Numbered from the stretch's first letter, positions 34,930-58,031 are shown. The stretch is 64,000 nucleotides of DNA from an uncultured Candidatus Saccharibacteria bacterium (GCA_964532205.1 CAZHGQ010000004.1:3118-67117); one strand, 5' to 3'. Numbers and translations: made by a program. Notes: generated by a model from the sequence alone, not told the origin.

Positions 34930-34935
34930 GCGGCT

Positions 34936-37900: not shown

Positions 37901-37986
37901 ACGCACAAGATCAAGCGATGCGGCAGCAGGCGATTGCCCAGGTCGTCGCTCGTTCGGTGACGCGGATGCGGAAAAAGAAACAGTAG
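34936..37986 (+). CDS. Large HerA/FtsK-superfamily ATPase (DUF87-like) with Pro-rich linker and C-terminal PD-(D/E)xK-like or DNA-binding domain
   Basis: Walker A GASGTGKSQ, Walker B IDEFHHF, ARKYRLALILAHQ (HerA-type arginine-finger region). Paralogous ATPase core to 53398..54690. C-terminal GGSVDIALEKGNHRIACE. Confidence 0.6.
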   Translation: MSAYLSIDEQLAQEFYDWELIGRGWQVWDDPVSPEPPFRPFIRKMPQCSRSDDGRDHSLLSGVIARLARLFAGRPNLPVEPEPTWTPLRIIHDPPPVVELALVPPADFDASQQMMAQLLASLAMANHPIAFEILASQNTIVSQFAVAQSDASAVRSQIQAHFPEVALSQQTNVLKDRWDASGEASLIFEIGLSQEFMRPLPVPPKLTPDVLVSVMGAMEEVSTDELALMQMIFEPARYPWAASMLRAVTFNDGSEFFDASESVLDETKEKLSRPLYAAVIRLAVKTADEARTFEIARSLTASLTAGFQGYGNDLIALSNDEYDPDDHEFDTLHRQCRRSGMILNSDELVNFVHIPSSAVRTSKFTRQLKRTKRAPAIAAGRDCVLGENFHAEHTIPVGVAAEERSRHMHLIGASGTGKSQLLLNLIVQDMEHGKGLGLLDPHGDLVDDVLSRVPEDRIDDVVLLDPSDETHTVGINILSARTEVEKTVLASDLVAVFQRLATSWGDQMTSVLGNAILAFLERPQGGTLADLRRFLIEPAYRNEVLSSVTDPEVIYYWKKQFPLIRGMPLGSVLTRLDTFLRRKPIRQMVCLKEKALDFADIMDRGKIFLARIPQGLVGEENAHLLGSLLVSKFYQLAMVRQQSAASHRRDFYLYIDEFHHFVTPSMSSILSEARKYRLALILAHQELRQLESRGVDLSSAVLSHPYTRICFRVGDQDAKRLAEGFSFFTAADLQSLSTGEAICRMERSNYDFNLRTKLLPELEWQRVEEKRRSVIERSRDQFAVLRSSLVDATSLTTESFTAEEIAEPEVEPIIVEPKPETPAPAPRPIAKPPKVKPLADEPANLGRGGPEHQYLQQLIKQWAQGMGYRASIEAPLPEGGSVDIALEKGNHRIACETSVTNTPAYEVSNIRKSLVAKYQYVAVVTTDLKHREKIEAAAEQSLTDAELKQVRFFSPDELFAFVQELEVNDAKQERLVCGYKVKTSVRSTDAQDQAMRQQAIAQVVARSVTRMRKKKQ

Positions 37987-38032
37987 CGTCCAGCATAGTT
38001 GACTATTTTCTCATCGCCTTTGGTGGTCAATT

Positions 38033-38257
38033 ATGATAGACTATCCGGCGATGACTCACGAGCAATTGCTGAAAGTGGTTTGCCGCCGGATGAAGCGTCT
38101 GGACATGACACCGTACCGTTTGCATCAGGAACTCAACGGTAAGGTTTCAAAGCAGACGGTCTACAACTTCATCGAGCATGGCAGGCACGTCACCACGGAG
38201 ACACTCGTGGCGATTCTTTCGGTGCTCAAGCTTTCGATCAGCGAACCGGACGAATAG
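38033..38257 (+). CDS. XRE-family HTH DNA-binding protein
   Basis: SKQTVYNFIEHGRHVTTETLVAILSVL. Confidence 0.6.
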   Translation: MIDYPAMTHEQLLKVVCRRMKRLDMTPYRLHQELNGKVSKQTVYNFIEHGRHVTTETLVAILSVLKLSISEPDE

Positions 38258-38266
38258 GAGGCGATC

Positions 38267-39850
38267 ATGATTGCACGCACGTCGTACGAGATTCACAAAC
38301 CGGTGGGCATCTGGATTCGCGTCTCGACTGAAGACCAGGCCCAGGGTGATAGTCCTGAGCATCATGAGAAGCGTGCCCGCTATTACGCCGAATCCAAAGA
38401 GTGGGACGTCAAAGAGGTGTATCACCTGGAAGGTGTGAGTGGAAAGACGCTCATGGGGCATCCCGAGACACGCCGAATGCTCGAAGACATCCGCACCGGG
38501 AAGATTCGCGGGTTGATCTTCTCCAAGCTCGCCCGTCTCGCCCGCAATACCAAGGAACTCTTGGAGTTCGCCGATATCTTCCGCGAACACAACGCGGATT
38601 TGATTTCTCTTCAAGAATCGATTGATACCTCCACACCCGCAGGCCGTCTCTTCTACACCATGATTGCAGCGATGGCGCAGTGGGAACGGGAGGAGATCGC
38701 GGATCGCGTGAAGGCATCGATTGCCATCCGAGCTAAGCTGGGCAAGCCGTTAAGCGGCAGACCGGCATTTGGATATACACTTAAGGATAAGAAGGTCGTT
38801 CCCCATCCCACCGAAGCCCCGGTTCGCAAGCTCATCTATGAATTATTTGCCGAGCATCGCCGGTACAAGACGGTGGCGAGGCTGCTCAACGAGTCCGGGT
38901 ATCGCACCCGAAGCGGTGGACTCTTCTCCCATTCCACCGTTGAACGACTCATTGACGATCCAACCGCTAAAGGCGTGTATCGCACAGCGTTCACTGAGAA
39001 GATCAAAGGCAGAAGCTGGGTAAGCCAGAAGCCGGAGAGCGAATGGACGACGATTGCGGTTGAGCCCATCGTTTCTGAGGAGTTGTGGGAACAGTGCCAC
39101 AAGTTGCAGGCAGAGCGGTACCAACCTCGCAAGCGTCCAGGCAAACGTCCGGTGCATCTGTTTGCAGGATTGGCGTACTGTGAATGCGGCAAGAAGATGT
39201 ATGTCCCGTCCAACACGCCCAAGTACGTCTGTCAGGCCTGCCGCATCAAGATTCCCATCGTGGACTTAGAGAATGTCTTTATTGAACAACTCAAAGGTTT
39301 CTTCCTATCCCCCGATCAACTTGCAACGCATGTCGAATTGGCAGATGACAACATCCGAGAAAAGCACAAGCTTCTTGAGGTGCTTCAATCGGAAGCGGAC
39401 AAGCTTCAAGCCGAGATTGACAAGACCTACCAACTCTATCTGGAAGGACAGTTATCCACCGAAGGCTTCGGCAAGTTCTACAAACCCCTGGAAGACCGGC
39501 AGAAGCAACTTGGGGAGGAGCTACCCAAGCTCCAAGCTGAGCTTGACCTGCTGCGGATTAATGGCATTTCCGCTGATCTCGTCATGACTGAAGCCAAGGA
39601 CCTCTATGCCCGCTGGAAGGATTTAGACAAAGACGAGAAGCGCCGAGTCATTGAATCTCTTACCGATCGGATCACGATCGGAAAGGAGGCGATAGACATA
39701 AGTCTTTGCTTTCGCCCCTCCTATGAAGAAATGACAAATAGGCAACGCGAGCTTGTCATGGCGTTACCTATTTGCCACCTCAAGCTAACTCATCGAATCG
39801 TCGAGAGTTGTGTAAAACCGAAGATCCCGAGCATGATACAATCGAGGTAA
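38267..39850 (+). CDS. Large serine recombinase rec3 (distinct subfamily from rec1/rec2)
   Basis: IWIRVSTEDQ catalytic Ser. Recombinase domain. CECGKKMYVPSNTPKYVCQAC zinc ribbon. Coiled coil. Confidence 0.85.
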   Translation: MIARTSYEIHKPVGIWIRVSTEDQAQGDSPEHHEKRARYYAESKEWDVKEVYHLEGVSGKTLMGHPETRRMLEDIRTGKIRGLIFSKLARLARNTKELLEFADIFREHNADLISLQESIDTSTPAGRLFYTMIAAMAQWEREEIADRVKASIAIRAKLGKPLSGRPAFGYTLKDKKVVPHPTEAPVRKLIYELFAEHRRYKTVARLLNESGYRTRSGGLFSHSTVERLIDDPTAKGVYRTAFTEKIKGRSWVSQKPESEWTTIAVEPIVSEELWEQCHKLQAERYQPRKRPGKRPVHLFAGLAYCECGKKMYVPSNTPKYVCQACRIKIPIVDLENVFIEQLKGFFLSPDQLATHVELADDNIREKHKLLEVLQSEADKLQAEIDKTYQLYLEGQLSTEGFGKFYKPLEDRQKQLGEELPKLQAELDLLRINGISADLVMTEAKDLYARWKDLDKDEKRRVIESLTDRITIGKEAIDISLCFRPSYEEMTNRQRELVMALPICHLKLTHRIVESCVKPKIPSMIQSR

Positions 39851-40738
39851 ATGACGTCTACAAGAGGTGGGGTGAATATTGAACTTCAAGTACGCGATAT
39901 CGCGCTACTTCGTGACCTTTTTGAATCTCGATTCATGGCACTCCGGCACATCGCGGGCCTACATTTTGACTCTCGGCACGAGCCAGCCCGAAAACGAGTA
40001 TCTCTACTTTGCAGTGCAGGATACATCCGGGTGAGGGCACGCCACTTTAACGAACCTGCGCTGTACTTCTTGACCGCGCGCGGCATGCGACTTCTTTCGC
40101 AATACGGCCACTTAGGATCGTATCCTCATCTGTCTCGCGCGGTCTTGCAGAAGCGACTTGAGATAAGTTCACTAACTCTCCGGCATGAGCTCGATGTGCT
40201 GGATGTCAAAACGGCATTTGTGAACGCGACAAGATCAAACGCCAAACTCCGCATCGCAACCTTCTCAACGTGGCCGAAACTGCATTCCTTTCAAATGCTT
40301 TCAAGCGACGGGTCTGAAGTCATCGTAAAGCCTGATGGGTATATCGTCGTCCAAGAACCGCGTGCCGATTGCCCGCTTGTCATCCATCGATTCTTCCTTG
40401 AAGTCGACCGAAGCACCGAATCGCTTCGGGTCATTGACACGCGATGCAACGCATACGTCGACTATTACCGCAGCGGGGGCTTCGCTGTCGCAAACGGATT
40501 GTCATTCGACGATTATAAGCGTTTCCCATTCCGCGTTCTGATCATCACCAAGAGCGAAGAACGCCTGCAAAACATCGCCGACCGGATAAGCAAGACCGCT
40601 GGATCTCAGATTTGGCTTACGACACAGCGCGATTTCATAATCGGTTCGCTTGGGCAGATTTGGCGCTTGGTGAAACACGGCCACACTAACCAGCCGAACG
40701 ATCACAAGTCGCTCTTCATCACCCGCACCAATTTTTAA
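39851..40738 (+). CDS. Replication-relaxation (Replic_Relax) family protein
   Basis: N-terminal wHTH (DIALLRDLFESRFMALRHIAGL) and FFLEVDRSTE core motif. Confidence 0.6.
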   Translation: MTSTRGGVNIELQVRDIALLRDLFESRFMALRHIAGLHFDSRHEPARKRVSLLCSAGYIRVRARHFNEPALYFLTARGMRLLSQYGHLGSYPHLSRAVLQKRLEISSLTLRHELDVLDVKTAFVNATRSNAKLRIATFSTWPKLHSFQMLSSDGSEVIVKPDGYIVVQEPRADCPLVIHRFFLEVDRSTESLRVIDTRCNAYVDYYRSGGFAVANGLSFDDYKRFPFRVLIITKSEERLQNIADRISKTAGSQIWLTTQRDFIIGSLGQIWRLVKHGHTNQPNDHKSLFITRTNF

Positions 40739-40762
40739 CCAACAGTGGATAGCAACTACTAC

Positions 40763-41092
40763 TCATCTACTGGAGTGCAGTTCCTTCAGACCTGCTCGCG
40801 CATCATCGGCCTCCTTATCCAATCCTTCTGTCTCTGCCAGGGGGATTACCCTCTGAAACATTTCGATCGCTTCGACTAAGCGTCCGAGATCTTTCATCAA
40901 GCATGCGAGGCAATAGAGAATCTGCACCCGATCGTAGGTATCTTCTTCTTGTTCAGCCTTAAGCAAAGCTTCGCGAAGTTGATTTTCTCCATCAGTGGTA
41001 CGGCCACGATCGAGTAGCAGTAGTGCTTTATTGAACATGTCACGTGCATTCATTTTATCTCCCATACATTCTAATGAAGTTGCGAGAAGCAC
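40763..41092 (-). CDS. TPR-like small protein; candidate immunity protein for the upstream Rhs toxin
   Basis: Helical TPR-like repeats. Immediately downstream of the toxin gene, overlapping it by 38 nt. Confidence 0.4.
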   Translation of the reverse strand: MLLATSLECMGDKMNARDMFNKALLLLDRGRTTDGENQLREALLKAEQEEDTYDRVQILYCLACLMKDLGRLVEAIEMFQRVIPLAETEGLDKEADDARAGLKELHSSR

Positions 41093-44000
41093 GTGGTACT
41101 AAATACATCTCAGAGAGGAGTTTGACTTGCCTCTCGATGTCCGCAACTCCAAAATTCGGATTTGCGTTGGCGAAAAGTTCCCACTGCTTGTTCCACTCAG
41201 GGTGCAGTGTCTTGTGGAGTGCGTAAGGTATTTCTGTAATCCGTTGATCTACGAACTTGCGCGGGTCATAGCCGAGAGCTCGGAGCCGATTGCTGAAAGT
41301 GGAATTCTTGAGCAGTTGCTGCGGCACAAGATGATGTTGCCTCATTGCCGCTGGTCCGTAGCGTGCACGGTAGCCTGATGTATTTCGTACCATGCCGCTC
41401 GGCGTCGATCCGGACAATGAATAAACTGCAGTTGAGCCAACTCCGACCACACCGCCCCAGTTGACCGCAGCCCCACTAAAGACGCTTGCAGCAGTTGAAC
41501 CACCGCCCATCACTGAAGCAACAGTTTGACCACCGATAATGGACAGCGCTGGTGGAGGTGTCCGGCTAAAGAGCATCAACGCGCCCTGGGCGCCTTCATC
41601 GGCGTATCGCAACGCCGTGGTCGAGAACCGGCTAATCGCGCCGGGGAACGAACCGGCCAGAGCGCCGATGTTCGTGCCGACCTCCACGCTCTTCCAGTAG
41701 TCCGCTCCTGTCGATGCGGAATAGATCGCGCCACCAGCGCCGCCGACCGCTGTTCCTGCAGCGAGATACCAAAGCGCAGAAGTGCCACCTGACGCTACGG
41801 TCAACGCGACTGTGCCGGCCCATCCGGAAATCTTCGCTAGATGATATGGATCGGCATTCCACTCCGCAGATGGCCGGAACGCGTCATATTTACCCGAGAA
41901 ATCCGTCCACGCATCGAGTGTGCTTGGATTGCTCCATTGTCCTTGTGTTCCGGCGAAACCATCCTTCTCCTGCACGCCCGTCCATTCGACGTTTTTGCCA
42001 TCAAAGAATCCACCGGCGGTATAGCTTTGGTAGGCGTAGCCATCTTCTGTCTGCGGCGTGCCGCGGTAGCTGTCGTGCTCGGTTTGGTTGGGCATCCAAA
42101 GCATGCCGTCACCATCATCACGACCGCCACGCCAAAGGTAACGGAAGCGGTAACCGTCGCTAGACGTGGACCTGCCGTATTGATCGACTTTATAATCAAA
42201 GGTGCTGGTTCCTGTGGATTGACCGACTGCAACCTGTCCTTCTGTTGTGTATGTGTACATCTCACGGTTGATCGCCAAACTTGTAAAATCTTCGCGGATG
42301 CGCCAGACGCTGCCATCGGGTCCGCTGTACACCCAGACACGACTACCATCATCATTGTCTCGAAGCACCATCCGTCCGGGTTCACCGGCGCTCCAGACAT
42401 ACTGATTCTGGGGCTGAGTGCGATACGTGCCGTCAATCTGCTCTTGTTTCTCTTCAATCACATTGCCAGCGGCGTCATAGAACAGGTGCAGCGTGCCCTG
42501 ATATCCCGTGACCTCTTGCGTGCTGTTGGTCTCGGAGATGCGTCGTCCAAGCGCATCGTAGTCGAATGTCAGCGTGTGCGCATTGGGAATATCGTAAGCG
42601 TATTGGTATTGAGAATTCCCCGGATCGGCGAAGATCTCGTCGAGCTTGACTGTCGTCTTGCTTGCGAGCCGACCCAACCCGTCATACTGAACAAAGACAT
42701 CAATGCGCTGATCGATATTATCGACAGGTGTTGATTGAATCGGGCTATTGCCGGTTGGCACTGGGCGCTGGAACACTAAACGTGCAGGTGGATCAAAGGT
42801 GTTTGTCCCGCTTCGGTCGCGTGTCAGGACACTGGCATCGATGATGTTATCCCAATTCTGCGATGAGATTGGCAGCGGATCACCATCGGAATCGGTCGTG
42901 ACGGAAGGCGCGTTGAGGCTGGTCAATCTTCCGCGTTTGTCGCTGCCTGTATTCAGCCAGTAAGTGAAATTCCCTGGATAGTCTCCATCACCGCGGACGA
43001 ACGACTGAACTCTGCCCAACTGGTCATATACCTGATTCGCCGGCGCGCTGCCCGAGCCATACAACTCGCTTCTCCACCGTCCGTTGAAGTTGTCTTGGCT
43101 ATCAAGCCAAGAGTAAAGAACATTCCCATCAGCGTCGTAGCCATAAGCACGTTGTTCGAGGCCGACGTCATGAATGACTACGCGCCCAAACCGATCGAGC
43201 CCGCCATATTGATCGTTGACGCGACCTGCATCGTCGGCGACCTGGTTCCAATCCATTGTCACTGCTGATGCAGGATCGAGATCATAAATGTATGTCGTAC
43301 CTTGAAATGATACGGCCACGCCGCCAGCACTAAGCACACGCGGCATATTACGTTCGACAATGCGATTCAAGCCAAGATACTCGTAACGTTCCAGCCGGTC
43401 GTTGTTTACGGCGGTGGATGGATCACCATCGACCATGAATCCAACTCTGCTGATCCGATCGTTGAGCACTCGGCTGAAGTTCACGAGCGTACTGCTGGTC
43501 GTGTAGTCTTGATATCCATACACCACGCCCACTTCGCGGCCATCGGGATAGACTGTCTTTGCAAGACGGGTGAGATTGTTTCCAAAATCGGTGGTGTAGA
43601 CGTATTGAACCTTTTGCGATGGAGTCCCTCCTGTACGAGCGACCGATGTCTTGTGTTCCTGCCATTCTGTTACGAGATTGCCAAGCCCGTCGAAGTCCCG
43701 GATCACTTGATTCTTGACCGTTGTTCCAGAATCGAGCGTTGTAAATTCAATTCCCCGGCTGAGTGCATCGAATCGTGTGCGAATCTTCTGACCACGATCC
43801 AACATGTTGGCCGGTTTCGATGCGGCATCGATCCACTCCGTCAGCGTCAGTCTGCCAAGTGTGTCGTAGTTGAATCGCTGCTCGCGAATCTGTTTCTGCG
43901 TAGCCGACGTGCTGAGGTTGTAGATTTCCTCTTTCTGTTGCCTGTTTTCGCCCAATGCGGTATAGCCGGTCATCACCTCGCGATGCCCTGATCCAGAGTA

Positions 44001-47000
44001 AGCACCAGCAGGACGACCGTATACAACACTGCTCAAGAGCCCGCTGTGATTGACAAGAATCGTGCTGTTTTTCGTGACGCCATAGTTGTACGTCGTGATG
44101 TAGGAATAGGCGGTGTTTGATTTGTAGGTGGTGGTTTCAATCTGGGTTTGCTGATCAAAGCCGTTGTAGGTGTAAAGCGTTTTTCGCGTGTCGTCTGCGG
44201 TTGGAGCAGATGAGCGATATCCTTCTTGAACAATGGTGGCACGATCCAGCGCGTCATAGGTTGTGCGAGTGACTACACCTCGCGGACTCACCACATCCTG
44301 CAACCGGCCCGCAGTGTCAAAAACATAATCTGTCTGCAACCAACGATCCCAACCATCAGCTGCAGTATCGCGTCCAGGAGCGGTGCTTGGTCGCGAAAAG
44401 TCCCGCACGCCGTTTGCATTGGCATCGCCATCATCGCCATTGTTGCCCCAGTTGACCTGATTGGTCAGTCGGTCCGCAGAATCGTAATAGTTGCCGACAA
44501 GACTGATGCGGGCATTCAAAGAAGTTAAGTCACCCAAATCCGTCTTGTCATGATCCCGCTGCCCGGTTGCAATCAGAGTTGGATTTCCGTTGCCGTCATA
44601 ACTTGTTTCAACTTGTTCCAAAACAACATCATCGCTTACGCTGCCAGCGGCGGTATAGTTGCCGGAAGCACCAGGTGCCGGATCATCTTTTCCATCAGTC
44701 GTGTATCGCTTGGTTTCCCGGCTAGCCCCGTCGTACACCATCTTCTGATTTAAGCCGCCGGGGTTGCGCTGTTTGATCAGGTTGCCGCGATTGTCGTACC
44801 ACATGCTGGTGGTAAGGTAATTGCCTTTTGTGCCCGCAGTACCGGACCATTCCTGCTCGACGCTATACTGCCGTACTTCGTACACGTTTCCGCGATCATC
44901 AAACAGGGTGTCTTGATATGCGCGACGTTGCGCGGAGAGCGTGCTATCCACCGTTCCCAGATTCAAACTGTTGATGTTCTGCCCGTCGCCGTCGTAAATA
45001 CCCTTGCCAACACATCTATCCAAGTTGTCAAAAACACAGAGTGTAATAGGTGAGTTTACCGTCGTGTCGCTGGTGACTCCTTCATGCGTCAACACCAGAC
45101 GATCGCGCCAATCATAGCGCATGGCGGTCACGCGATCCGCGTTAGAGCCTCCTGGAATTTGCGTGACCTTCGTGAGCGTATCGTCACCCACGTTTCCACC
45201 GTCAACGCTGCCACCATCATATTCATTGGCAGTGACCTTCGTCATATTCGTGCCGGGAGAACCTGGAGACCAACTACTGTCATCCGTACCCACCCACGTT
45301 GAGATTGCACGATCCAGTCCGTCATACACGGTGCGCGTGATGGTTGGGTTAAAGCCGGAGAGACTTCCGCCCGTGTACAAATCTCGACCGGCAGCTTGGC
45401 GCGTCTGCCGTCCCCGCTCATCGTAACCAAACTCGGTGCGATATCGGGTTGTCGTGCCTGTTAGAGCGCCAGTGCTGGCGGTATAGGCGTTGCCCGAGGT
45501 GTCCGCGAAACGCTCGACCGCTGTGGCTTGCTGCTGGATATTATGCTCAGTGCGCGTGCGTTTTGTGACTGTTGAAAGCAAGTCACCCGAGCTATCGCGC
45601 ACCACGTCGATTTCATCAAGCACACCTGTCGCGCGATTATCTATAATGACATGGGCTGGTGGAGTATTCCCTGAGCTCGGCAACGGCGGCGTGATTGTCA
45701 CTCGCTTCAGAGCGGCACTGTCGTCATATTCACTCCTAGTAATCCCCGTGCTCAAGCCCATGTAGGTGTTTGCATCCGTAATCTTTCTGTTTCGACCAAG
45801 TAGATCCGCTTCGAAGCCCGTTGTTAATGGAGCTCCGCCACTATCAACAACACTCTGCTTAAGGGCACCCGTGGCGTCAAAATACTGGTTGGTTGCGACC
45901 TTGCCATCGCCGTCCGTAAACGACGTTTCTCTGCCGAAAGAGTCGTACGCCATAATCTCGGTCTTTGATGTGGTTTGTGTGCCGCCGTTCTGAGCCTGAA
46001 GAATGTCGGGAAGCGTTGTAGTTCTTTGTGTGATCCGGTCACTACTATATGAATACGAATAGCTTGTCGTAACGGCACTCGCGCTGGCGTCGCTTCGATA
46101 GACCGTATCAGAAGCGACAACAAATGCGCTCGACGTTGGTGTGCCACCTGTTGCACTTGGACGAGCGCTGTACGTGAGTTCGACTTGCAGATTTTGCGAT
46201 CCTCCTGTCCCCTGTTTTCGACCTGTACGCCACAAGTACCCCGTAGCACTTGCTGGGTCATACTCAAATGTATGGACCAACCCGGTGGCACTCTGCAAGG
46301 TTGCCGGGTGATTGTTGCTGTCGCTGATTGACGCGACAGCTGTCGGCGTCGCTGTAAGGGTCAAGCGTCCTTTTGCATCGAATTGATTGGCGGTGTTCCA
46401 AGTCGCCGCCGTTGTCGCTGTGGGCGAGCTATAACTTGTGAGCAGGACTTCGCCACGGCTGTTTGTGTAAACGACATTCTTGTCGTTATTGCTCAGATCT
46501 GCATTGTCGGAATCCGGTAGGGATTCAATTGTCTTTGAATCCCACGTGTTTACACCACTGCGCCCACCGGTGGTACTCGACGATGGACCAGCATAGTCAT
46601 AGCTGAACGTTCCACTGCCTTGAATCGTCTGCGTTTTCACTCGATTACGCCGAAGTACGGTGGAATCATCGGCGGCGTAGTAATCGAGCACAAGATTCGC
46701 GTACGGTTGGAGTGTCGCTTGGTTCACTGACGCTGGATCCATTCCTTCGCGGCCAAGCGCACGCTCATAAGAAGCGCCCTCAAGCACGAGAATCAGTCGG
46801 CCATAGTTGTCATAGCGATAGAGCTTGCGTTCGACTGCATTGCCACTTTGCTTGACGGTAACGCGCTTCAAGTTTCCAGGATTGCCATATGTGGTGTCGC
46901 TTCCACCGTAATATTCGTATTCGACGTTGCGCACCGCTTCGACTGCACCCGCATTGAGGTCGTTGCGTCGCTCCATCAGCATGCCAGTGAGTTGATTGAT

Positions 47001-48764
47001 ACCGTTATAGCTGTATGTGAGGCGTTCAAGAATAGCAGAGTCAGAAAGCCGTTTTCGCTCCACGGTGTTTGGCAATCCGGCAGCCGTGTAGTTGATCTTC
47101 GTTTCGTTCCCTGCCGAATCCACGTAGCGATCCAGTTGGCCACGCTGCAGCGACGCGATGCTGCTGCCGAAACCATGGAAATAAAACTTGTTACCCAACG
47201 TGTCTGTTACGCGGTATCCCGTGCCATCGACCACAAGCCGATCTAGGCTGAAATCACGTGCCACATAAGCAGAGCCGGTGTAATCAAACCACTGTGAGGA
47301 TCGACCACCGGCTACGAGAATCATGCTACTCGTCGCTTGAATCAGAGACGGCCACTGTGCCATGCTCCATCCAGCGCCATTGAGTGCATCGATTCCCTGC
47401 CCGCGAGAATTGTTCCACGTTCGTGTGTGACCCGAGACAATTCCGCCTTCCGCCGGGTCGAGGTCGGATGAGGTAAAGAACACCGAACCATCTGCATACC
47501 GAACAACACCGGAAAAGCCGTCGGTCATCGGATCACTGCTATCAGCACCTGTCGCGGTGCCACCTGGACGATCGGCAAGTGGGTCATTGAAGTATGATGG
47601 GGTTGCTCGGACGGCGGTCAGCCGAACTGTATCCATGTATTTACCGGGTGTTCCCGCGTTTCCATCCGGATCAACTTCCACAATAATGCTTTGTTCTGCG
47701 AGCGTAGGCGACGGTCTGACTGCCTCCACATAGAGCGTTGTGCCAAGCGCTTGGAATTGCGCCAGTGTATACGTAGTTCCGGATGTGCCTCCGGCAACAA
47801 AATCCGACACCGTGCGGGTTGCGTCCGAACCGTCTTTTTTCCAAAGGCGCAACCATCCAGCGGCGGGTGTGTCCGACGTCGTCGCACCGGAGCTCGGATC
47901 GGAACTGTCGTATGTAAGCTTGATTATCGCGGAAGACGTCAAACCGCTCGGAAGCGTGAGTTGAAGCGGTACAAATTTCAATCCCGTTGCCGTGTCATCA
48001 TTTGATGCTGACCCGTCACGGTTGTAGCCATCGGCAAAGTCGGGAATTCCATCGAGGTCAATGTCGCCATTATTAACGGTAATGATTTTGCCCGGTCGAC
48101 CAATGGACTCCTCGATATCCGTCTCTGAGCCGTTTCGCTCCGGCGACCCCGCACTGGTGTTGTCCGAGTCAATGGACACATCCATGCGCTTCACCGAATC
48201 TGCATAGTACGAAAAGAACAGCGTGTAGTCGTCATTATTCACTAATCCGTCGCCGGTCATATCACCTTGGGTATACTTGGCCCCAGTTGCACCAAAATTT
48301 CCCGCGAGAATGTTGAAATCAATGCTGTTTGCTTTCAGATCCCGATCAAAATCTCCTGGTTGAAATTCGAAGCGGTAGACATTACTCAGCGAAGGCGAGG
48401 CCGACGAAAGTGTAAGTTGGAAACTTCCTTTGGAGAGAATCGCGCCCATACCCGGAAATGTTACTTTCGCAGTGGCGGCATCCGGAAACGTCACGGTGGG
48501 CGTCGAGTTCGCAGGTGCCGAACCGGTCTCGATATCGATTAGCGAGAAGTTGGAGGCGCTCAAACCGCTGCTCACGGCATCACTAAAACGGTACACCACG
48601 CCTTGTGAGCCCGCTTGTGTGTAATCGAACGATGCTTCCATTAGCCGGACGGGGGCGCTGAGCAGTTGCCGACGTTCCAGTGCATCCATTGCACAGTGCG
48701 CAAGAAGACTATGAACGCTGGCACGATTCCGGCGAGAGCGACGATCCATGATGGCTCCTTCCAA
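41055..48764 (-). CDS. Rhs/YD-repeat polymorphic toxin (2569 aa) with dockerin-like N-region and C-terminal QHH (AHH-like HNH nuclease) domain
   Basis: GDMTGDGLVNNDD. Dozens of YD repeats (YxYDxxGR). Distinct about 120-aa C-terminal tail with RQHHLVPQ. Confidence 0.75.
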   Translation of the reverse strand: MEGAIMDRRSRRNRASVHSLLAHCAMDALERRQLLSAPVRLMEASFDYTQAGSQGVVYRFSDAVSSGLSASNFSLIDIETGSAPANSTPTVTFPDAATAKVTFPGMGAILSKGSFQLTLSSASPSLSNVYRFEFQPGDFDRDLKANSIDFNILAGNFGATGAKYTQGDMTGDGLVNNDDYTLFFSYYADSVKRMDVSIDSDNTSAGSPERNGSETDIEESIGRPGKIITVNNGDIDLDGIPDFADGYNRDGSASNDDTATGLKFVPLQLTLPSGLTSSAIIKLTYDSSDPSSGATTSDTPAAGWLRLWKKDGSDATRTVSDFVAGGTSGTTYTLAQFQALGTTLYVEAVRPSPTLAEQSIIVEVDPDGNAGTPGKYMDTVRLTAVRATPSYFNDPLADRPGGTATGADSSDPMTDGFSGVVRYADGSVFFTSSDLDPAEGGIVSGHTRTWNNSRGQGIDALNGAGWSMAQWPSLIQATSSMILVAGGRSSQWFDYTGSAYVARDFSLDRLVVDGTGYRVTDTLGNKFYFHGFGSSIASLQRGQLDRYVDSAGNETKINYTAAGLPNTVERKRLSDSAILERLTYSYNGINQLTGMLMERRNDLNAGAVEAVRNVEYEYYGGSDTTYGNPGNLKRVTVKQSGNAVERKLYRYDNYGRLILVLEGASYERALGREGMDPASVNQATLQPYANLVLDYYAADDSTVLRRNRVKTQTIQGSGTFSYDYAGPSSSTTGGRSGVNTWDSKTIESLPDSDNADLSNNDKNVVYTNSRGEVLLTSYSSPTATTAATWNTANQFDAKGRLTLTATPTAVASISDSNNHPATLQSATGLVHTFEYDPASATGYLWRTGRKQGTGGSQNLQVELTYSARPSATGGTPTSSAFVVASDTVYRSDASASAVTTSYSYSYSSDRITQRTTTLPDILQAQNGGTQTTSKTEIMAYDSFGRETSFTDGDGKVATNQYFDATGALKQSVVDSGGAPLTTGFEADLLGRNRKITDANTYMGLSTGITRSEYDDSAALKRVTITPPLPSSGNTPPAHVIIDNRATGVLDEIDVVRDSSGDLLSTVTKRTRTEHNIQQQATAVERFADTSGNAYTASTGALTGTTTRYRTEFGYDERGRQTRQAAGRDLYTGGSLSGFNPTITRTVYDGLDRAISTWVGTDDSSWSPGSPGTNMTKVTANEYDGGSVDGGNVGDDTLTKVTQIPGGSNADRVTAMRYDWRDRLVLTHEGVTSDTTVNSPITLCVFDNLDRCVGKGIYDGDGQNINSLNLGTVDSTLSAQRRAYQDTLFDDRGNVYEVRQYSVEQEWSGTAGTKGNYLTTSMWYDNRGNLIKQRNPGGLNQKMVYDGASRETKRYTTDGKDDPAPGASGNYTAAGSVSDDVVLEQVETSYDGNGNPTLIATGQRDHDKTDLGDLTSLNARISLVGNYYDSADRLTNQVNWGNNGDDGDANANGVRDFSRPSTAPGRDTAADGWDRWLQTDYVFDTAGRLQDVVSPRGVVTRTTYDALDRATIVQEGYRSSAPTADDTRKTLYTYNGFDQQTQIETTTYKSNTAYSYITTYNYGVTKNSTILVNHSGLLSSVVYGRPAGAYSGSGHREVMTGYTALGENRQQKEEIYNLSTSATQKQIREQRFNYDTLGRLTLTEWIDAASKPANMLDRGQKIRTRFDALSRGIEFTTLDSGTTVKNQVIRDFDGLGNLVTEWQEHKTSVARTGGTPSQKVQYVYTTDFGNNLTRLAKTVYPDGREVGVVYGYQDYTTSSTLVNFSRVLNDRISRVGFMVDGDPSTAVNNDRLERYEYLGLNRIVERNMPRVLSAGGVAVSFQGTTYIYDLDPASAVTMDWNQVADDAGRVNDQYGGLDRFGRVVIHDVGLEQRAYGYDADGNVLYSWLDSQDNFNGRWRSELYGSGSAPANQVYDQLGRVQSFVRGDGDYPGNFTYWLNTGSDKRGRLTSLNAPSVTTDSDGDPLPISSQNWDNIIDASVLTRDRSGTNTFDPPARLVFQRPVPTGNSPIQSTPVDNIDQRIDVFVQYDGLGRLASKTTVKLDEIFADPGNSQYQYAYDIPNAHTLTFDYDALGRRISETNSTQEVTGYQGTLHLFYDAAGNVIEEKQEQIDGTYRTQPQNQYVWSAGEPGRMVLRDNDDGSRVWVYSGPDGSVWRIREDFTSLAINREMYTYTTEGQVAVGQSTGTSTFDYKVDQYGRSTSSDGYRFRYLWRGGRDDGDGMLWMPNQTEHDSYRGTPQTEDGYAYQSYTAGGFFDGKNVEWTGVQEKDGFAGTQGQWSNPSTLDAWTDFSGKYDAFRPSAEWNADPYHLAKISGWAGTVALTVASGGTSALWYLAAGTAVGGAGGAIYSASTGADYWKSVEVGTNIGALAGSFPGAISRFSTTALRYADEGAQGALMLFSRTPPPALSIIGGQTVASVMGGGSTAASVFSGAAVNWGGVVGVGSTAVYSLSGSTPSGMVRNTSGYRARYGPAAMRQHHLVPQQLLKNSTFSNRLRALGYDPRKFVDQRITEIPYALHKTLHPEWNKQWELFANANPNFGVADIERQVKLLSEMYLVPRASRNFIRMYGR

Positions 48765-49056
48765 AGACCCCGACCGAATTGTCTTTGCTTTGATTAACCC
48801 TTTTGTGCCCCGGCGTGTCGCGACTCCCGTTGCGAACAGCGCGCCGGGTTACTTCTCGAATTCAATAGACCAATATGATCAAGCTACGTCAAGATAATTT
48901 TCAGTTAAGACAACTTCATTGAATTTGCTTCGACAGTGTTTCAGGATCGTATCCCCGCCTTGCGCCACAGAACACATCGTGCGAAAATCAAATCAGAATA
49001 TCGCAGCGTCAATTGTCGCGTGTTTGATTCTCAATCTCACATTGAAAGGAGACTTC

Positions 49057-49374
49057 ATGGCCCGCACTCGAAAGCCAACCAGTTCGTCCGAGCCACTCAT
49101 TTCGCAGACGCCACCAGCGGAAGCTACAAACAAGCCAGTGCATACCATTCGCTATGGCGCGGTCAAAGCTACTGTGTGGCAGAACGACAGCGAGAATGGA
49201 ATTTTTCATACCGTGACTGTAAGTCGAAGCTGGCGAGACGATAAAGACCAATGGCACGACTCGCAGTCGTTCCATTTCAAAGAGCTGCCACAGTTGTCAA
49301 AAGCTGTCAACGACGCCCACTCTTGGATCGCGTGGCAAGAGCGGAGAATGGCAGACGCGGCGAAAACGAAGTAA
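49057..49374 (+). CDS. Hypothetical protein (start moved to Met with AAGGAG RBS)
   Basis: aaaggagacttcATG. Followed by a terminator. Confidence 0.4.
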   Translation: MARTRKPTSSSEPLISQTPPAEATNKPVHTIRYGAVKATVWQNDSENGIFHTVTVSRSWRDDKDQWHDSQSFHFKELPQLSKAVNDAHSWIAWQERRMADAAKTK

Positions 49375-49398
49375 GGCTGCTTGCAGCACACCTCCATT

Positions 49399-49424
49399 AG
49401 CCAGGCATCACCCTGGCTTTTGTT
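49399..49424 (+). terminator. Rho-independent terminator (agccagg...cctggct then T-run)
   Basis: Hairpin plus tttgttt. Confidence 0.65.
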
Positions 49425-49524
49425 TAAATGAAAAACCGCTGGCTGATTGAGAGGGGGAAACTCAACCGGGGACGCCAGCGGCAACAGCAATCTATCCATT
49501 CACCTGCGTTGACACAACAAAAAG

Positions 49525-49917
49525 CTAGAAATCTTCGGGCAAGAGAACGGTGGTCACCGAGCGGTCCGCTTCGGTGATGATCCAGAGCTTCACCCCGCAG
49601 CGATCCGTGTAGACCGACAGCAATCGCATCCCTTCCTTCAGCGCGAGATCATTCTCCCTTCGGTCTGATTCGCAGACCTCTCCCCAATCTCCTCTCACAT
49701 GACGAGCTAGGCAACTTGGGATGTCTTCTGGATGCAACTTGTCCTTCGCACTGGCAGTGATAACGCACTGCCCCACTGGAAACAATGATAGCGGCATGAT
49801 GGACTCCTGAGTTTGGATGGATGTAGAAACGATCTTCCTTGAGCGTATGACAGGAATTGATCGCGCGCAACCGTTGGCTGTGGGTAAGAAGACCGCCTTG
49901 ACCGGGCTCAAACACAA
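49525..49917 (-). CDS. Conserved hypothetical plasmid/element protein (HVRGDWGEV...DRREN...WIITEADRS motifs)
   Basis: ORF with distinctive motifs; function unknown. Confidence 0.4.
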   Translation of the reverse strand: MCLSPVKAVFLPTANGCARSIPVIRSRKIVSTSIQTQESIMPLSLFPVGQCVITASAKDKLHPEDIPSCLARHVRGDWGEVCESDRRENDLALKEGMRLLSVYTDRCGVKLWIITEADRSVTTVLLPEDF

Positions 49918-50258
49918 TCAAAATCAAAAAAACTTTGAATTGCTAAGTTGCCGTCACCACAATCCGCGCGGAATTGAAAGGCGAAATCTGGGCTCATTTC
50001 GCCGTTGTCTCCGCTCCATATCGTGCTATGTTGCTTCCGGCTTTTTCCGTTGCCGGTTCCTGCACAATCGACTCTCCTGAGATCGACAATACGTAGCTCT
50101 TCTTGTCCTAGTTACGATGGAACTGGCGAGGTCATTTGTTCGCGATGCGACAGTAGTGCAAAGACCCAAACCTCAACTGGTGAAGCGGTTTCCTGCAAGT
50201 GCTGTCGTGGATATGGCAGGATCGTGTGCCCGATGCATTCACTGCCAAAACAGGCTCT

Positions 50259-50501
50259 TCAAAGTGACCGCTCGAATGATGCAAGCATGACAGAGGGTTC
50301 CTTGCCGCAGGCTTTGCACCAGGAAATAAACTCAACCGGATCGATGCGACGATCCCCAACCTCGACCTTGTGAACATAGGAGGGAGGCTTGCGGAGCTTT
50401 TCCGCAAGCGCACGCTGGGATTGGCCGCTTTGATTCCGCAGCGCCCGCAGCGTGCGACAAAGTTTTCGGTACGCAGGAGTGTGTTGTGCCCTTGCACCCA
50501 T
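50259..50501 (-). CDS. XRE-family HTH transcriptional regulator
   Basis: LRALRNQSGQSQRALAEKL...SYVHKVEVGDRRIDPVEF. Confidence 0.65.
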   Translation of the reverse strand: MGARAQHTPAYRKLCRTLRALRNQSGQSQRALAEKLRKPPSYVHKVEVGDRRIDPVEFISWCKACGKEPSVMLASFERSL

Positions 50502-50563
50502 TACAGGAGCAAGGTAACGTGAACGTCTGATGCTCCCATTTTGGGAGTAACTGGAGGTGTGGT

Positions 50564-50755
50564 ATGTCCAGCCGTAGTTGTCCCCGCTGTCATGAAAAAG
50601 GAACTGTCACCTGCAGCCGCTGCAAGGGATCTGGGCAAGTGTACAAGGGCTTCTTCCGGGATGGCGAAAGTCGCCAGGAATGCCCGAAGTGCGATGGCAA
50701 GGGAGAAGTCCAGTGCCCTCGCTGTGAGGGTTCGGGCACGGTGGAGAAGGGCTGA
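50564..50755 (+). CDS. Small DnaJ-type zinc-finger protein (four CxxCxGxG repeats)
   Basis: CPRCHEKGTVTCSRCKGSGQV...CPKCDGKGEVQCPRCEGSGTV. Confidence 0.5.
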   Translation: MSSRSCPRCHEKGTVTCSRCKGSGQVYKGFFRDGESRQECPKCDGKGEVQCPRCEGSGTVEKG

Positions 50756-50878
50756 TAGACCGACTCTGTGCTGATGATGCCGCTTAACACAGGGATAGTC
50801 GTCCGGTCGAGAATAGTCCAAGCCGACGAGCAAATACTGGGTCGGCTTGGACTTCATCCTTCCAAGAACAAGAACGGT

Positions 50879-51568
50879 CTAGTCTGCAAATGCTACGGGT
50901 TCTAAGCCTTTGCCAGATTCGGAATTGTCCACATCATAACCCACACGCAAACAACCCTTCTTCCATTTGCAACTGCGGATGGTCACCTCTCCCAAATCTG
51001 CTAAGGTCCCGATATGCGTGCCGCCGCACGGGAGCGGCGGGAAGTTTTGAATTGTGACGATGCGAGGCGGCGGTACTCCGTCTGTCATCGAGACTTGGCC
51101 TCCCGCCTCGATAGCGTCGCGAAGCTCAGCAGCCAATGTCGACTCAAAGCCTGAGGGTGGCGCTATTTCACACTGAAATTCGACACGAGCTTCACCGGGC
51201 CAGTGATGTCCACCCTTCGCTCGCAAGGAAGGCAACAATCGTTCGGCGACTCCGGCAATCAAGTGGCCAGCGGTGTGATAGCGTGAGTTCACTGCGCGAC
51301 GATCTGCATCAATCCGAACCTCTACCTCTTCTCCGACTCGTAGACCGTCGACGCTGTCAACAGTATGCGCAATATTGTCGTCATCAGCATAGTCCGCACG
51401 CAAAATCTTCGCTGGCCCAATCCAGCCAAGATCACTAGGTTGCCCGCCACCTTGTGGAGCGACAATCGTCTGATCAAGAAAGACCACCGGCGATGGCTCA
51501 GCGATAATCCGGACCACGCGGGCGCGGCAAATAGCTGCTGAACTTGTGAAATAGGTTTTATTAGTCAT
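50879..51568 (-). CDS. AlaX-like alanyl-tRNA-synthetase editing-domain protein (tRNA_SAD)
   Basis: HTAGHLI and CGGTH zinc-binding motifs. Confidence 0.65.
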   Translation of the reverse strand: MTNKTYFTSSAAICRARVVRIIAEPSPVVFLDQTIVAPQGGGQPSDLGWIGPAKILRADYADDDNIAHTVDSVDGLRVGEEVEVRIDADRRAVNSRYHTAGHLIAGVAERLLPSLRAKGGHHWPGEARVEFQCEIAPPSGFESTLAAELRDAIEAGGQVSMTDGVPPPRIVTIQNFPPLPCGGTHIGTLADLGEVTIRSCKWKKGCLRVGYDVDNSESGKGLEPVAFAD

Positions 51569-51634
51569 TGTGGGTTCCTTATCTTGATAATCAATTCCTG
51601 TATATACGAGCTGACGAATTTTGAGAGATCATTC

Positions 51635-52498
51635 TTATGAGTGATGAAATAGCGGCAGATCTTGGGAAACAAAATCAACGAAACCGCTAATTGATAATCG
51701 CTCCCCTGCTCCAGCACAGGCGGTCACAGCATGGATACGCCTTGCTGATGCGATCACAAGTGCGCCTATTGGAGGATCAAACTCGACATCCGGCGGACCG
51801 ATTCTCGAACGATCAAGCCCGTAGGTCTTGTTCCCCTTATCATCGTAGAACCGAAGAGTGTCGTACTCCGAGCGATTCGTGATGACACGATTCCAGAATT
51901 GGAGTCTTCCACCACTCTCTGTTTTCTTCACATAAACATTGACGAAGAGCTGTTCCTGAATGGAACGGGTTTCGTCACATGGGAAGTCAAGGTCGGCACG
52001 GTCATCGTGGGGATATGCTTCTCCACCGTCCCGAAACACTCGGCACACGCCGGTAAAACATGGCTTTCCGGAGATTCGAAGTTCACGCACACCATGCGGC
52101 CAGGCGTAGCCGACCTCGCGCAGCACCCTATGAATTGGAAATTCATAGGGTGCAAAATGCCGACACAACGCTTTGGACATCTGGTGAACTGAGTCAAAAT
52201 ACTTCGGGCATAATTCTTGCCCAAGACATCCGAAAAGCGAGTTGCCAATCGTGCCGATGCGCTCGGCACCCGTACCCGGCTCATAGGTGGTCCAATGTGC
52301 AAAGGTGAGCAAGCGATCAGCGACGACTTGGCAAGCCGCTTCTGAGAAGAAGCCGGGAATGACCACAGCAAAGTCATCCCGTCGAATCAGCCGACGAAGG
52401 TCTTCCTCTCGGATTTCATCAATCACGCGAACGCCTGGCGGCAGCGTGTCTGCGAAATCGTCGAGAGAATCTTGCCTCGCAGACAATAAATGAGACAT
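51635..52498 (-). CDS. 2OG-Fe(II)-oxygenase-like protein (start moved to Met with strong AGGAGG RBS)
   Basis: YPHDDRAD (HxD) ... RIHAV pattern. RBS aaggaggct 5 nt upstream of ATG at 52498. Confidence 0.35.
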   Translation of the reverse strand: MSHLLSARQDSLDDFADTLPPGVRVIDEIREEDLRRLIRRDDFAVVIPGFFSEAACQVVADRLLTFAHWTTYEPGTGAERIGTIGNSLFGCLGQELCPKYFDSVHQMSKALCRHFAPYEFPIHRVLREVGYAWPHGVRELRISGKPCFTGVCRVFRDGGEAYPHDDRADLDFPCDETRSIQEQLFVNVYVKKTESGGRLQFWNRVITNRSEYDTLRFYDDKGNKTYGLDRSRIGPPDVEFDPPIGALVIASARRIHAVTACAGAGERLSISGFVDFVSQDLPLFHHS

Positions 52499-52825
52499 GT
52501 AAGCCTCCTTTCGAAAGGAGGCCCAGCGGGCAGCGGTAGGCATTCGGCCAATTGCAAAACACTTGCAATTACAATGAATATGGCTCATAATGCACACATT
52601 GGACAGAGGTTAGGACTGACTCGCGAAAGTTTAGGTCCCGATCCCTGAATTGCCCGTCTGGGCCCAATGCCACTAGAGTAATCTGGTGGCTTTTTTTATC
52701 TTAACGCGCATCACAAATCTCGTCCAGAAAAATATCGTTATAGAGAATACTTCATACTTGACGACTAATTGCAGTCGATGGACCTTTCGTTGATTTTAGA
52801 TGCGGCTTTGGCCGATGATTAAAGT

Positions 52826-58029: not shown

Positions 58030-58031
58030 CC

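Follow-up and report, generated by a model that had tools for sequence, protein, structure and literature searches.

A probable polymorphic toxin-immunity cassette with a DUF2380/SitA6-like nuclease tail on a mobile island of an uncultured Candidatus Saccharibacteria bacterium

The DNA analysed here, called the window, is a stretch of 64,000 nucleotides from an uncultured Candidatus Saccharibacteria bacterium (GCA_964532205.1 CAZHGQ010000004.1:3118-67117). On its minus strand lie a very large gene for a YD-repeat (Rhs-like) protein and, directly downstream, a small gene for a TPR protein, both within an island of about 52% GC. The features are as follows.

41055..48749 (-), stop codon included: toxin gene, encoding a YD-repeat (Rhs-like) polymorphic toxin of 2564 aa, from ORF and homology
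48651..48749 (-): basic stretch and ALERRQLLSA motif (residues 1-33), predicted planctomycete-type export signal, from a pattern match
48192..48359 (-): two dockerin-like repeats of Ca-binding type (residues ~131-186), by motif only, GDFDRDLKANSIDFNILAGNF and GDMTGDGLVNNDDYTLFFSYY
47604..48197 (-): domain of ~200 aa of unknown function (residues ~185-382), from BLASTP
42153..47522 (-): YD-repeat shell region (residues ~410-2199), from RHS_repeat matches and Rhs homologues
42030..42152 (-): divergent Rhs core end (residues 2200-2240), YRFRYLWRGGRDDG…EHDSYRGTPQTEDGYAY, from alignment
41412..41855 (-): Gly/Ala/Ser-rich, weakly hydrophobic linker (residues 2299-2446), from homologue comparison
41058..41411 (-): C-terminal toxin domain of 118 aa (residues 2447-2564), DUF2380/SitA6-like, predicted AHH-like His-Me finger nuclease
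40763..41053 (-), stop codon included: candidate immunity gene, encoding a TPR protein of 96 aa (KALLLLDRG family), from synteny and TPR profiles
28155..61657 (no strand), approximate limits: island of ~52% GC bearing the cassette, from the GC step and mobility genes
34936-37986: TraG/TrwB-type coupling protein
39851-40738: Replic_Relax protein
58026-59138: primase
61525-61722: tRNA-His and tRNA-Leu

Both open reading frames were recovered where a sequence-only reading of this DNA had placed them, but their ends needed revision. The longest ORF of the toxin gene (41055..48764(-), 2569 codons) begins at a TTG and accounts for the length of 2569 aa given by that reading; the true start is most likely the ATG at 48749, which has the ribosome-binding site GGAAGGAG ahead of it, and the resulting product of 2564 aa is identical to the NCBI-derived protein P0002 and has full-length homologues in P0003 (47% identity) and P0004 (41%). 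Similarly, the longest ORF of the small gene (40763..41092(-), 109 codons) runs from a GTG, and the gene most likely starts at the ATG at 41053, with GGGAGA 6 nt upstream and the TAA of the Rhs gene (41057-41055) ending 1 nt before it. The same 96-aa gene was called in an independent assembly, and the 100-aa call of NCBI (P0084) would give an overlap of 11 nt. The overlap with the toxin 3' end that had been described is thus an artefact of taking the longest ORF. The two genes are intact, carry ribosome-binding sites and are tightly coupled, and the next gene beyond them, Replic_Relax, is convergent. A search of all six frames of the window for the orphan cassettes suspected downstream returned a single copy of the toxin domain and a single copy of the immunity gene.

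The mobile-element context claimed for the locus was borne out by the GC content, which rises from ~0.41 to ~0.54 at ~28.15 kb, by three large serine recombinases in the window (including those at 38267-39850 and 60008-61657), and by the coupling protein, Replic_Relax, primase and tRNA genes. A comparison of the two boundary regions for att sites or direct repeats found no common word longer than 11 nt; serine recombinases need no att repeats.

The C-terminal domain contains the motif RQHHLVPQ at residues 2470-2477, as had been read, and its key residues are H2472, H2473, P2476, H2512, H2516 and N2520. In the family of this domain, which comprises 64 cluster representatives, nearly all with the domain at the C-terminal end or close to it, H26, H27, P30 and H66 (domain numbering) are invariant and H70 and N74 nearly invariant. 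DUF2380 (PF09533, SitA6) matched 42 of 44 family members, with a best E of 1.6e-10; the window domain itself scored below the cut-offs of DUF2380 (19.6 bits vs 26.3) and TIGR02269 (16.3 bits vs 85.75), and the curated DUF2380 cut-off was reached by relatives such as P0038 (29.0 bits). When the toxin family was aligned with pMF1.20 by hhalign, a probability of 93.9% and an E of 1.6e-7 were obtained over 53 columns; pMF1.20 is a DUF2380 protein with DNA-cutting activity in vitro, which the neighbouring protein pMF1.19 inhibits (PMC6091211). The AF2 model of the domain (pLDDT 91.5) has a β-β-α topology in which the HH pair (H26, H27) lies at the end of strand 23-27, the second strand spans residues 58-62, and H66, H70 and N74 sit on helix 63-83 (HxxxH). 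In this model, the placement of the histidines on strand and helix fits the published AHH/LHH/WHH active site (PMC3113570). The same domain is also carried by proteins of PAAR-like+DUF6531+RHS, TcdB_mid+RHS, PT-HINT and eCIS_core architecture, and a family of toxins distributed over such carriers and over Rhs proteins argues against a non-toxin fold, which had been named as the outcome that would overturn the assignment. Family membership, invariant residues and modelled topology together suggest that the last 118 aa form a nuclease of His-Me finger (HNH/EndoVII) type that belongs to the DUF2380/SitA6 lineage. By analogy with AHH and HNH enzymes, H2472, H2512 and H2516 would hold the metal and H2473 would activate the water used to cut the DNA of a neighbouring cell.

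The small downstream protein is TPR-like, as had been proposed, at the level of its family: TPR_12 scored 29.7 bits for the window protein, just short of its cut-off (30.1), TPR_2, TPR_12 and TPR_8 matched 9 of 10 family members, and the family profile matched solved TPR proteins at E 2.5e-14. Immediately after the toxin domain, 11 of 13 genome loci, spread over several phyla, have a homologous TPR ORF of ~100 aa. One of these loci, L003, was left out of profile building and scored E 2e-26 for its TPR homologue. The gene is absent beside P0003 and P0004, paralogues with other C-termini. The synteny of the TPR gene with the toxin domain is therefore conserved among unrelated genomes, and the possibility that the ORF is non-conserved noise can be dismissed. 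The TPR protein would be made together with the toxin, and it probably binds the nuclease domain and protects the producer.

At the other end of the toxin protein, an Arg-rich stretch is followed by the pattern ExLExRxLL[AS] (residues 21-33, by pattern only), with LE.R.LL at residue 24. The same LE.R.LL-type motif is N-terminal in P0003, P0004, P0006, P0007 and P0010, and it recalls the consensus RRLxxExLExRxLLA (PF07595) borne by cell-surface proteins (PMC8567305). The statement that there is no obvious signal peptide had overlooked this planctomycete-type motif, which is a pattern match with no Pfam or NCBIfam HMM match. Through its …ALERRQLLSA motif, the toxin protein may be directed to the cell surface; no secretion apparatus for it was identifiable within the window. 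The dockerin-like N-region noted earlier consists of two GDxDxD…D…(L/F) units, which are clearer in P0003 and P0004; the motif repeats stand, but the window protein has no Pfam match to them, and a weak PF00404 match was found in its 47%-identical homologue P0003. The adjoining domain of ~200 aa, also without a Pfam match, shows 35-40% identity by BLASTP to tandem copies in P0007, P0009, P0011, P0012, P0015 and P0016, and on this sequence similarity it is common to other giant surface proteins. The dockerin-like repeats and this β-rich domain might present or anchor the toxin protein.

The identification of the giant protein as a YD-repeat protein held, with PF05593 matching in three stretches (E 6.8e-8), TIGR01643 matching at E 6.6e-5 and further RHS_repeat matches appearing when sub-fragments were searched. 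The shell is 27-46% identical to the Rhs proteins P0003-P0006, P0013, P0014 and P0018, and the toxin protein could be aligned with Rhs homologues over its whole length. An AF2 model of residues 1100-2290 consists of β-hairpin repeats at low confidence (pLDDT 41.8); the Foldseek matches of this low-confidence model with E < 1e-10 were exclusively Rhs, TcC or teneurin structures, and the best E was 4.5e-21, but at a TM of ~0.1. By homology, the long YD-repeat region would be an Rhs-type shell around the C-terminal cargo, with a putatively closed fold.

The core end that follows, YRFRYLWRGGRDDG…HDS…TEDGYAY, can be aligned with canonical core ends and keeps two Asp, but the aligned region has no DPxGL, the aspartyl autoprotease site. 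The Rhs core models (TIGR03696, RHS-core) gave no NCBIfam match at E ≤ 1 for the whole protein and no match at E ≤ 10 for residues 2134-2450. Judged from its sequence, the core end is non-canonical, and autoproteolytic release of the toxin is unproven because both DPxGL and a core model match are missing. The Gly-rich linker between core end and cargo is shared with P0004 and P0005, whose C-termini are different, and with P0017 and P0018, whose C-terminal domain is that of the window protein. A single 19-residue segment of it exceeds a Kyte-Doolittle value of 1.2, and the linker may aid the passage of the cargo across the target membrane.

P0003, P0004 and P0005 share the N-terminus, shell and core end up to the linker, beyond which their C-termini and the genes downstream are unrelated. 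The C-termini are thus exchangeable, the toxin domain occurs on several delivery scaffolds, and the candidate immunity gene after it varies together with it, as in polymorphic systems, and we consider it probable that the locus is a two-gene polymorphic toxin-immunity cassette on an integrative mobile island. The island would gain a competition or addiction module from it. A further-reaching proposal, that the window protein forms with P0003, P0004, P0005 and P0018 a distinct Rhs-like clade, seems unlikely. In such a clade, export would depend on the planctomycete-specific N-terminal signal rather than on a type VI or Tc partner, and the cargo would be released or translocated by non-canonical means, through a core end lacking DPxGL and a Gly-rich, membrane-active linker. 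If true, this would be an undescribed, self-contained and contact-dependent route of toxin delivery in PVC-type bacteria.

The nature of the nuclease is open to two other readings. The tail could be a true Tox-AHH (PF14412) member with Q for A, and not part of a separate DUF2380-type lineage: its HH dyad, two helix histidines and aromatic residue agree with the signature [AG]HH, N, H, H, Y published for AHH (PMC3482391), weak AHH matches were found in 4 of 44 family members (best E 0.0067), and SitA6 alleles have been described as containing AHH nucleases (PMC8546572). However, the HMM search of the tail that had been suggested as a check gave the sub-cut-off DUF2380 match and no match to Pfam AHH at E ≤ 1, DUF2380 is a far better match for the 42 relatives mentioned above, and the residue directly ahead of HH, which is Q in the window and D, E, R, K, N, Q, S or, once, W across the family, is never A or G. 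True membership is accordingly doubtful. The earlier description of the tail as AHH-like is upheld by the HH on strand 1, the two helix histidines and the DUF2380/SitA6 homology, but the tail is no Pfam AHH member; its nearest curated family is DUF2380, and DUF2380/SitA6 nucleases have been placed with AHH in the literature (PMC8546572, PMC3113570). It is less likely still that the His-Me finger enzyme acts on RNA or another substrate instead of DNA. HNH-type toxin domains are diverse, and assays have been confined to one distant relative, pMF1.20, on plasmid DNA, yet the one activity demonstrated by experiment in the lineage is that of a DNase, and the HH…HxxxH layout is that of DNase-type HNH toxins.

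The part played by the cassette and by its small gene can also be read differently. With recombinases and conjugation-type genes on the same island, and with a homologous DUF2380 pair that improved the maintenance of plasmid pMF1 (PMC6091211), the cassette might mainly stabilize the island by addiction (post-segregational killing), and not mainly be a weapon against neighbours. This is improbable, given that intracellular addiction needs no export and shell scaffold of 2446 aa and that the same domain is found elsewhere on the dedicated delivery scaffolds PAAR-Rhs, eCIS and PT-HINT, although the two roles are not mutually exclusive. Small all-TPR proteins act as chaperones in other secretion systems, but it is very unlikely that the TPR protein serves the toxin in that way, or as a secretion adaptor, instead of conferring immunity. 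Its gene goes with the toxin domain and not with the delivery scaffold: a member of this TPR family comes after the domain not only on the Rhs-like protein of the window but also where Proteobacteria carry it on full-length PAAR-Rhs proteins, and in one Saccharibacteria and two Lachnospiraceae MAGs (whose contigs are mostly truncated upstream), and it is missing beside paralogues with the scaffold in common but a different C-terminus. Moreover, a place downstream of the toxin is the usual immunity position.

Among known systems, the closest relatives of the toxin domain are the SitA6/DUF2380 (PF09533, TIGR02269) lipoprotein toxins of myxobacteria, which are homologous to it, share the motifs HHxxPQ … H…H…WN..W and, including the pair pMF1.20-pMF1.19, have a neighbouring neutralizing protein and often reside on mobile DNA, as here. 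They are, however, stand-alone lipoproteins delivered by outer-membrane exchange, whereas the window domain is carried as cargo at the C-terminus of an Rhs-like protein of 2564 aa and has an insert between HH and strand 2 that is ~10 residues longer; the immunity partner here is a 96-aa TPR protein, whereas theirs is a Gmx_para_CXXCG (PF09535) protein, and pMF1.19 matches PF09535 at E 1.8e-68. Tox-AHH (PF14412), reportedly a polymorphic toxin domain of Zhang, Iyer and Aravind (2011 and 2012), has an HNH/EndoVII fold whose first strand bears the HH dyad and whose helix bears two histidines, as modelled for the window domain, and it too is borne as C-terminal cargo by carriers that include Rhs and HINT proteins. 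It differs in having [AG]HH where the window family has a mostly polar or charged residue ahead of HH, and in its immunity proteins, which include α-repeat proteins (Imm-ank), with TPR not among the listed immunity families. The metal site of colicin E9 DNase, HH…HxxxH, lies on a β-β-α motif, as predicted here, and LHHDKP…TTPKRHIDIH of the colicin can be overlaid on HHxxP…(I/V)xPxxHxxxH in the same register, although neither sequence nor profile similarity is significant (probability 0.8%). Like the window pair, colicin E9/Im9 has a small helical immunity protein encoded beside the toxin, but immunity fold and delivery route differ.

For the scaffold, the top Foldseek matches of the shell model were Rhs effectors and Tc-toxin C components (such as RhsA 7q97, Tse15 8uy4 and TcdB2-TccC3 6suq), which, like the window system, combine a YD-repeat shell with a C-terminal toxin that varies and an immunity gene encoded downstream. 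Unlike them, the window system is without a PAAR, VgrG or TcB partner, and its protein has the planctomycete-type export motif at the N-terminus, a core end without DPxGL and a shell region of ~1800 aa as against ~1200 aa. The planctomycete PF07595 surface proteins resemble the toxin protein in their Arg-rich N-terminus followed by an ALERRQLLSA-type motif, their very large size and their dockerin-like repeats; they differ in that the PF07595 HMM does not report the window sequence, and the motif carriers mentioned in PMC8567305 include no toxin or YD-repeat/Rhs protein. Set beside these systems, the cassette is well formed, but as an instance of bacterial warfare of a known type it is essentially ordinary.

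The two ORFs that the sequence-only reading took for a giant toxin gene and its neighbour are both present where it had placed them. The large ORF comprises 2569 codons when read from a TTG; GGAAGGAG lies directly upstream of the ATG at 48749, and the 2564-aa product from this ATG is identical to a protein in an NCBI record (P0002), with RQHHLVPQ at residues 2470–2477. The small ORF comprises 109 codons when counted from a GTG; its ATG at 41053, with GGGAGA 6 bases upstream, sits 1 base past the toxin TAA and gives the same 96-aa product that was called in an independent assembly (L001). Because of this start and the independent call, the overlap with the 3' end of the toxin gene that had been described is an effect of choosing the longest ORF, and the 100-aa product called by NCBI would overlap the toxin gene by 11 nt. 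The pair is organized as follows:

Toxin gene, 41055–48749 (−), YD-repeat (Rhs-like) protein of 2564 aa
TPR gene, 40763–41053 (−), candidate immunity protein of 96 aa, directly 3' of the toxin gene

In a promoter scan, sigma-70-like sites were about as numerous as expected by chance, and terminator-like sites were fewer.

Since a word-indexed homologue search returned no matches for the toxin domain (the last 118 aa, residues 2447–2564) and, with the TPR ORF, recovered nothing but the query, an exhaustive HMMER search was needed to recover the toxin-domain family, which comprised 64 cluster representatives, 44 of them at E ≤ 1e-10. In nearly all representatives the domain ends a few to ~25 residues before the C-terminus at most; in relatives, DPxGL or the …VHN terminus of a HINT domain often precedes it, and its carriers include PAAR-like+DUF6531+RHS, TcdB+RHS, PT-HINT and eCIS_core proteins. 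Alignment of the 44 sequences revealed that H26, H27, P30 and H66 are invariant and that H70 and N74 are nearly so (H2472, H2473, P2476, H2512, H2516 and N2520 in the full protein). A confident AF2 model (pLDDT 91.5) predicts a β-β-α topology, with a strand (23–27) ending in HH, a second strand (58–62) and a helix (63–83) bearing H66, H70 and N74. The same arrangement has been described for AHH, LHH and WHH, in which metal is held by the leading His of the dyad together with two His of the helix, and water is activated by the other dyad His (PMC3113570).

With regard to ancestry, 42 of the 44 family members match Pfam DUF2380 (best E 1.6e-10), whereas AHH gave weak matches in 4; the domain in the window itself remains sub-threshold against both DUF2380 (19.6 bits, cut-off 26.3) and TIGR02269 SitA6 (E 0.0054). 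DUF2380 corresponds to the SitA6 toxins of myxobacteria (PMC12077181); one member, pMF1.20 of plasmid pMF1, is a nuclease that cuts plasmid DNA in vitro and that the neighbouring pMF1.19 inhibits (PMC6091211). Profile comparison of the toxin-domain family with pMF1.20 gave a probability of 93.9% (E 1.6e-7), and both contain the HHxxPQ motif; at the profile level, the toxin domain is homologous to this assayed DNase, and it would itself act as a DNase. Given the topology and the family matches, the toxin domain follows AHH in the logic of its fold, and its ancestry is DUF2380-like. The AHH-like nuclease tail proposed earlier thus stands with respect to the HH on a strand and the helix His, and the HMM check places the domain in a toxin family, although as a formal member of neither AHH nor DUF2380 at curated thresholds. 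Judged from these comparisons, it is a divergent DUF2380/SitA6 branch that is rare in the databases searched and occurs in several bacterial phyla. The family also appears to reach haloarchaea, because a 2145-aa TcdB-mid+FG-GAP+RHS protein ending in the toxin domain (P0033, WP_416841215.1) is assigned by NCBI to the genome of Haloferax sp. DFSO52. When PDB sequences were searched with the toxin-domain profile, the matches were all chance ones, to 'GWN..W' motifs of chromodomains; in hhalign the colicin E9 DNase aligned in the expected register but without significance, and tblastn of the domain against plasmids gave no matches.

The downstream gene was assessed by a pattern-seeded locus scan covering one genome per species, with patterns taken from a 10-sequence alignment. 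The toxin domain was found in 13 loci, from Lysobacteraceae, Stenotrophomonas, Pseudomonas, Citrobacter, Photorhabdus, Xanthomonas, Holophagales, Saccharibacteria, Lachnospiraceae and a Gordonia-labelled MAG; the patterns exclude the window variants RQHH and YRARYGP, and the source genome is therefore outside these loci. In 11 of the 13, the next ORF encodes a ~100-aa protein with a KALLLLDRG start and a TPR-like body like that of the window TPR protein, and one such protein (L003), left out of profile building, matched the profile at E 2e-26. With a homologue directly 3' of the toxin domain in so many loci, the TPR ORF occupies an immunity position and is not the noise that it might have been. 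The TPR family matches only generic TPR models, together with solved TPR proteins (E 2.5e-14), and no dedicated immunity family in Pfam or NCBIfam matched it; a toxin domain only partly covered by existing models is now linked to one particular family of small TPR proteins as its candidate immunity partner. The TPR protein accompanies the toxin domain rather than any one delivery scaffold, which argues for immunity and against a role as secretion chaperone. As an immunity protein, it would neutralize the toxin.

Pseudomonas entomophila and Photorhabdus akhurstii are the two exceptions, with a different downstream protein of ~220 aa. P. entomophila carries the toxin domain as a full Rhs copy and an orphan copy, and the P. 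akhurstii locus also has it. The ~220-aa protein (L006 2895–3584 and 4317–4982; L013 487–1128) is conserved in both species, ends in HCPGCF and has no Pfam match, making it a second candidate immunity family; membership in the SitI6-type Gmx_para_CXXCG family was considered, and no relation was detectable.

YD/RHS repeats are the only features of the toxin protein that Pfam and NCBIfam recognize. Over >90% of its length it aligns with the homologues P0003 (47% identity) and P0004 (41%), and over 69–85% with P0005 and P0006 at 30–33% identity; all have in common with it the N-terminus, the repeat region and an unusual conserved core end, YRFRYLWRGGRDDG…HD(S/T)…RGTP..ED.YAY. In an alignment with canonical Rhs core ends, this region retains two Asp, but the cleavage motif DPxGL is missing, and none of the Rhs core-domain models matches it. 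It is followed by a short conserved stretch and then by a Gly/Ala/Ser-rich, weakly hydrophobic segment, which also occurs in P0004 and P0005, with other C-termini, and in P0017 and P0018, with the same C-terminal domain. Past this segment the paralogues are unrelated, and each is closely followed by a gene of its own, none of which resembles the toxin domain or TPR gene of the window. C-termini have thus been exchanged along with downstream genes, and unrelated C-termini with their own downstream genes on a common scaffold are what defines polymorphic toxins. By eye, the P0003 C-terminus (L016 15673–16368) has a restriction-endonuclease-like D…E.K motif and that of P0004 (L017 7853–8347) an HExxH zincin motif, each with its own downstream gene.

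The AF2 model of the shell (residues 1100–2290, alignment of six sequences) reached a pLDDT of 41.8, too low a confidence for a closed cocoon to be demonstrable from it. The Foldseek matches of this model at E <1e-10 were exclusively Rhs effectors, TcC proteins and teneurins (down to 4.5e-21; TM ~0.1), confirming the repeat type. The shell would encapsulate and release its cargo, and the Gly-rich linker may have a role in membrane passage.

Delivery had been left unclear for want of an obvious signal peptide, PAAR or LXG. The toxin protein starts with MDRRSRRNRASVHSLLAHCAMDALERRQLLSAP, which agrees with RRLxxExLExRxLLA (Pfam PF07595), a consensus regarded as an export signal, specific to planctomycetes, on very large proteins of the cell surface (PMC8567305). 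The LE.R.LL motif recurs N-terminally in P0003, P0004, P0006, P0007 and P0010, and only one other match to the pattern was found in the window, inside a 116-codon ORF. Since the LEPR-XLL and Planc_extracel HMMs reported no match at this N-terminus, the assignment rests on pattern and conservation. A planctomycete-type export route is likely on this basis; the motif would offer a possible exit for a giant Rhs-like toxin from a cell without an obvious type VI or Tc partner, which bears on competition among PVC bacteria. The dockerin-like N-region that had been noticed is visible by motif as two repeats (residues ~131–186), which are clearer in P0003 and P0004, with a weak PF00404 match in P0003. 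An unannotated ~200-aa domain follows (residues ~185–382, 47604–48197 (−)) and contains the GDIDLDGIPDFADGYNRDG segment; copies with 35–40% identity, up to four in tandem, occur in other giant proteins, including P0007, annotated as an autotransporter-associated beta strand protein.

The mobile-element context proposed for the cassette is borne out. At ~28.15 kb, just past the end of a large serine recombinase gene, GC steps up from ~0.41 to ~0.54. The ~52% GC island that extends from there to ~61.6 kb contains genes for two further serine recombinases, a TraG/TrwB-type coupling protein, a Replic_Relax protein, an FtsK/HerA-like ATPase and a primase, has tRNA-His and tRNA-Leu at its right edge and carries defence genes. 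No att repeats were found at the island, and no orphan toxin or immunity copies, for which a downstream search had been proposed, occur in the window. Further features of the window outside the cassette include:

52–7976 (−), three consecutive large ORFs (942, 817 and 879 aa), no Pfam or PADLOC matches
15636–18813 (−), type II restriction-modification pair: REase with HATPase_c_3 (PADLOC REase_II, E 6e-94) and C-5 cytosine methylase
19128–24116 (−), copper P-type ATPase near a TauE/SafE-CopZ protein (19128–20147)
26562–28154 (+), large serine recombinase gene; GC step exactly at the gene end (~28100–28200)
28589–30205 (+), Pycsar, complete anti-phage system at the left island edge: PycTIR cNMP-binding TIR effector (PADLOC E 1e-110), then PycC cyclase (E 3e-102)
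51635–52597 (−), WelO5-like 2OG-Fe(II) oxygenase/halogenase homologue (E 1e-7), same strand as the toxin gene and upstream of it
54910–57378 and 53398–54690 (−), OLD/AriA/Gabija-like AAA_15 ATPase (822 aa) and adjoining HerA/FtsK-like ATPase (PADLOC mad8, HerA)
60008–61657 (+), third serine recombinase ORF; overruns tRNA-His (61525–61598 (−)) and ends inside the start of tRNA-Leu

Because GC steps exactly at the recombinase gene end, the low-GC segment (1–28 kb) and the 52% GC island have the appearance of two mobile elements, either side by side or one nested in the other. The OLD/AriA/Gabija-like and HerA/FtsK-like ATPases may form a further defence module, and the recombinase–tRNA overlap may mark an integration site or reflect an over-extended ORF. 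Three small ORFs after the WelO5-like homologue have no family matches. In the low-GC part, the exact TauE/SafE-CopZ sequence belongs to a ≥90% identity cluster of 282 members, including a Patescibacteria MAG, which suggests a widely transferred metal-resistance gene.

Taken together, the reading of an Rhs toxin with a nuclease tail and an immunity gene is supported, with the refinements described. Features of moderate interest are a toxin–immunity pair for which no dedicated curated model was found, the non-canonical core end and the likely planctomycete-type export route. The system belongs to a known kind, that of Rhs-type polymorphic toxins with an HNH-type nuclease domain and, here, a candidate immunity protein, and is otherwise a textbook polymorphic toxin cassette, carried as cargo of a mobile island beside Pycsar and an OLD/Gabija-like ATPase.
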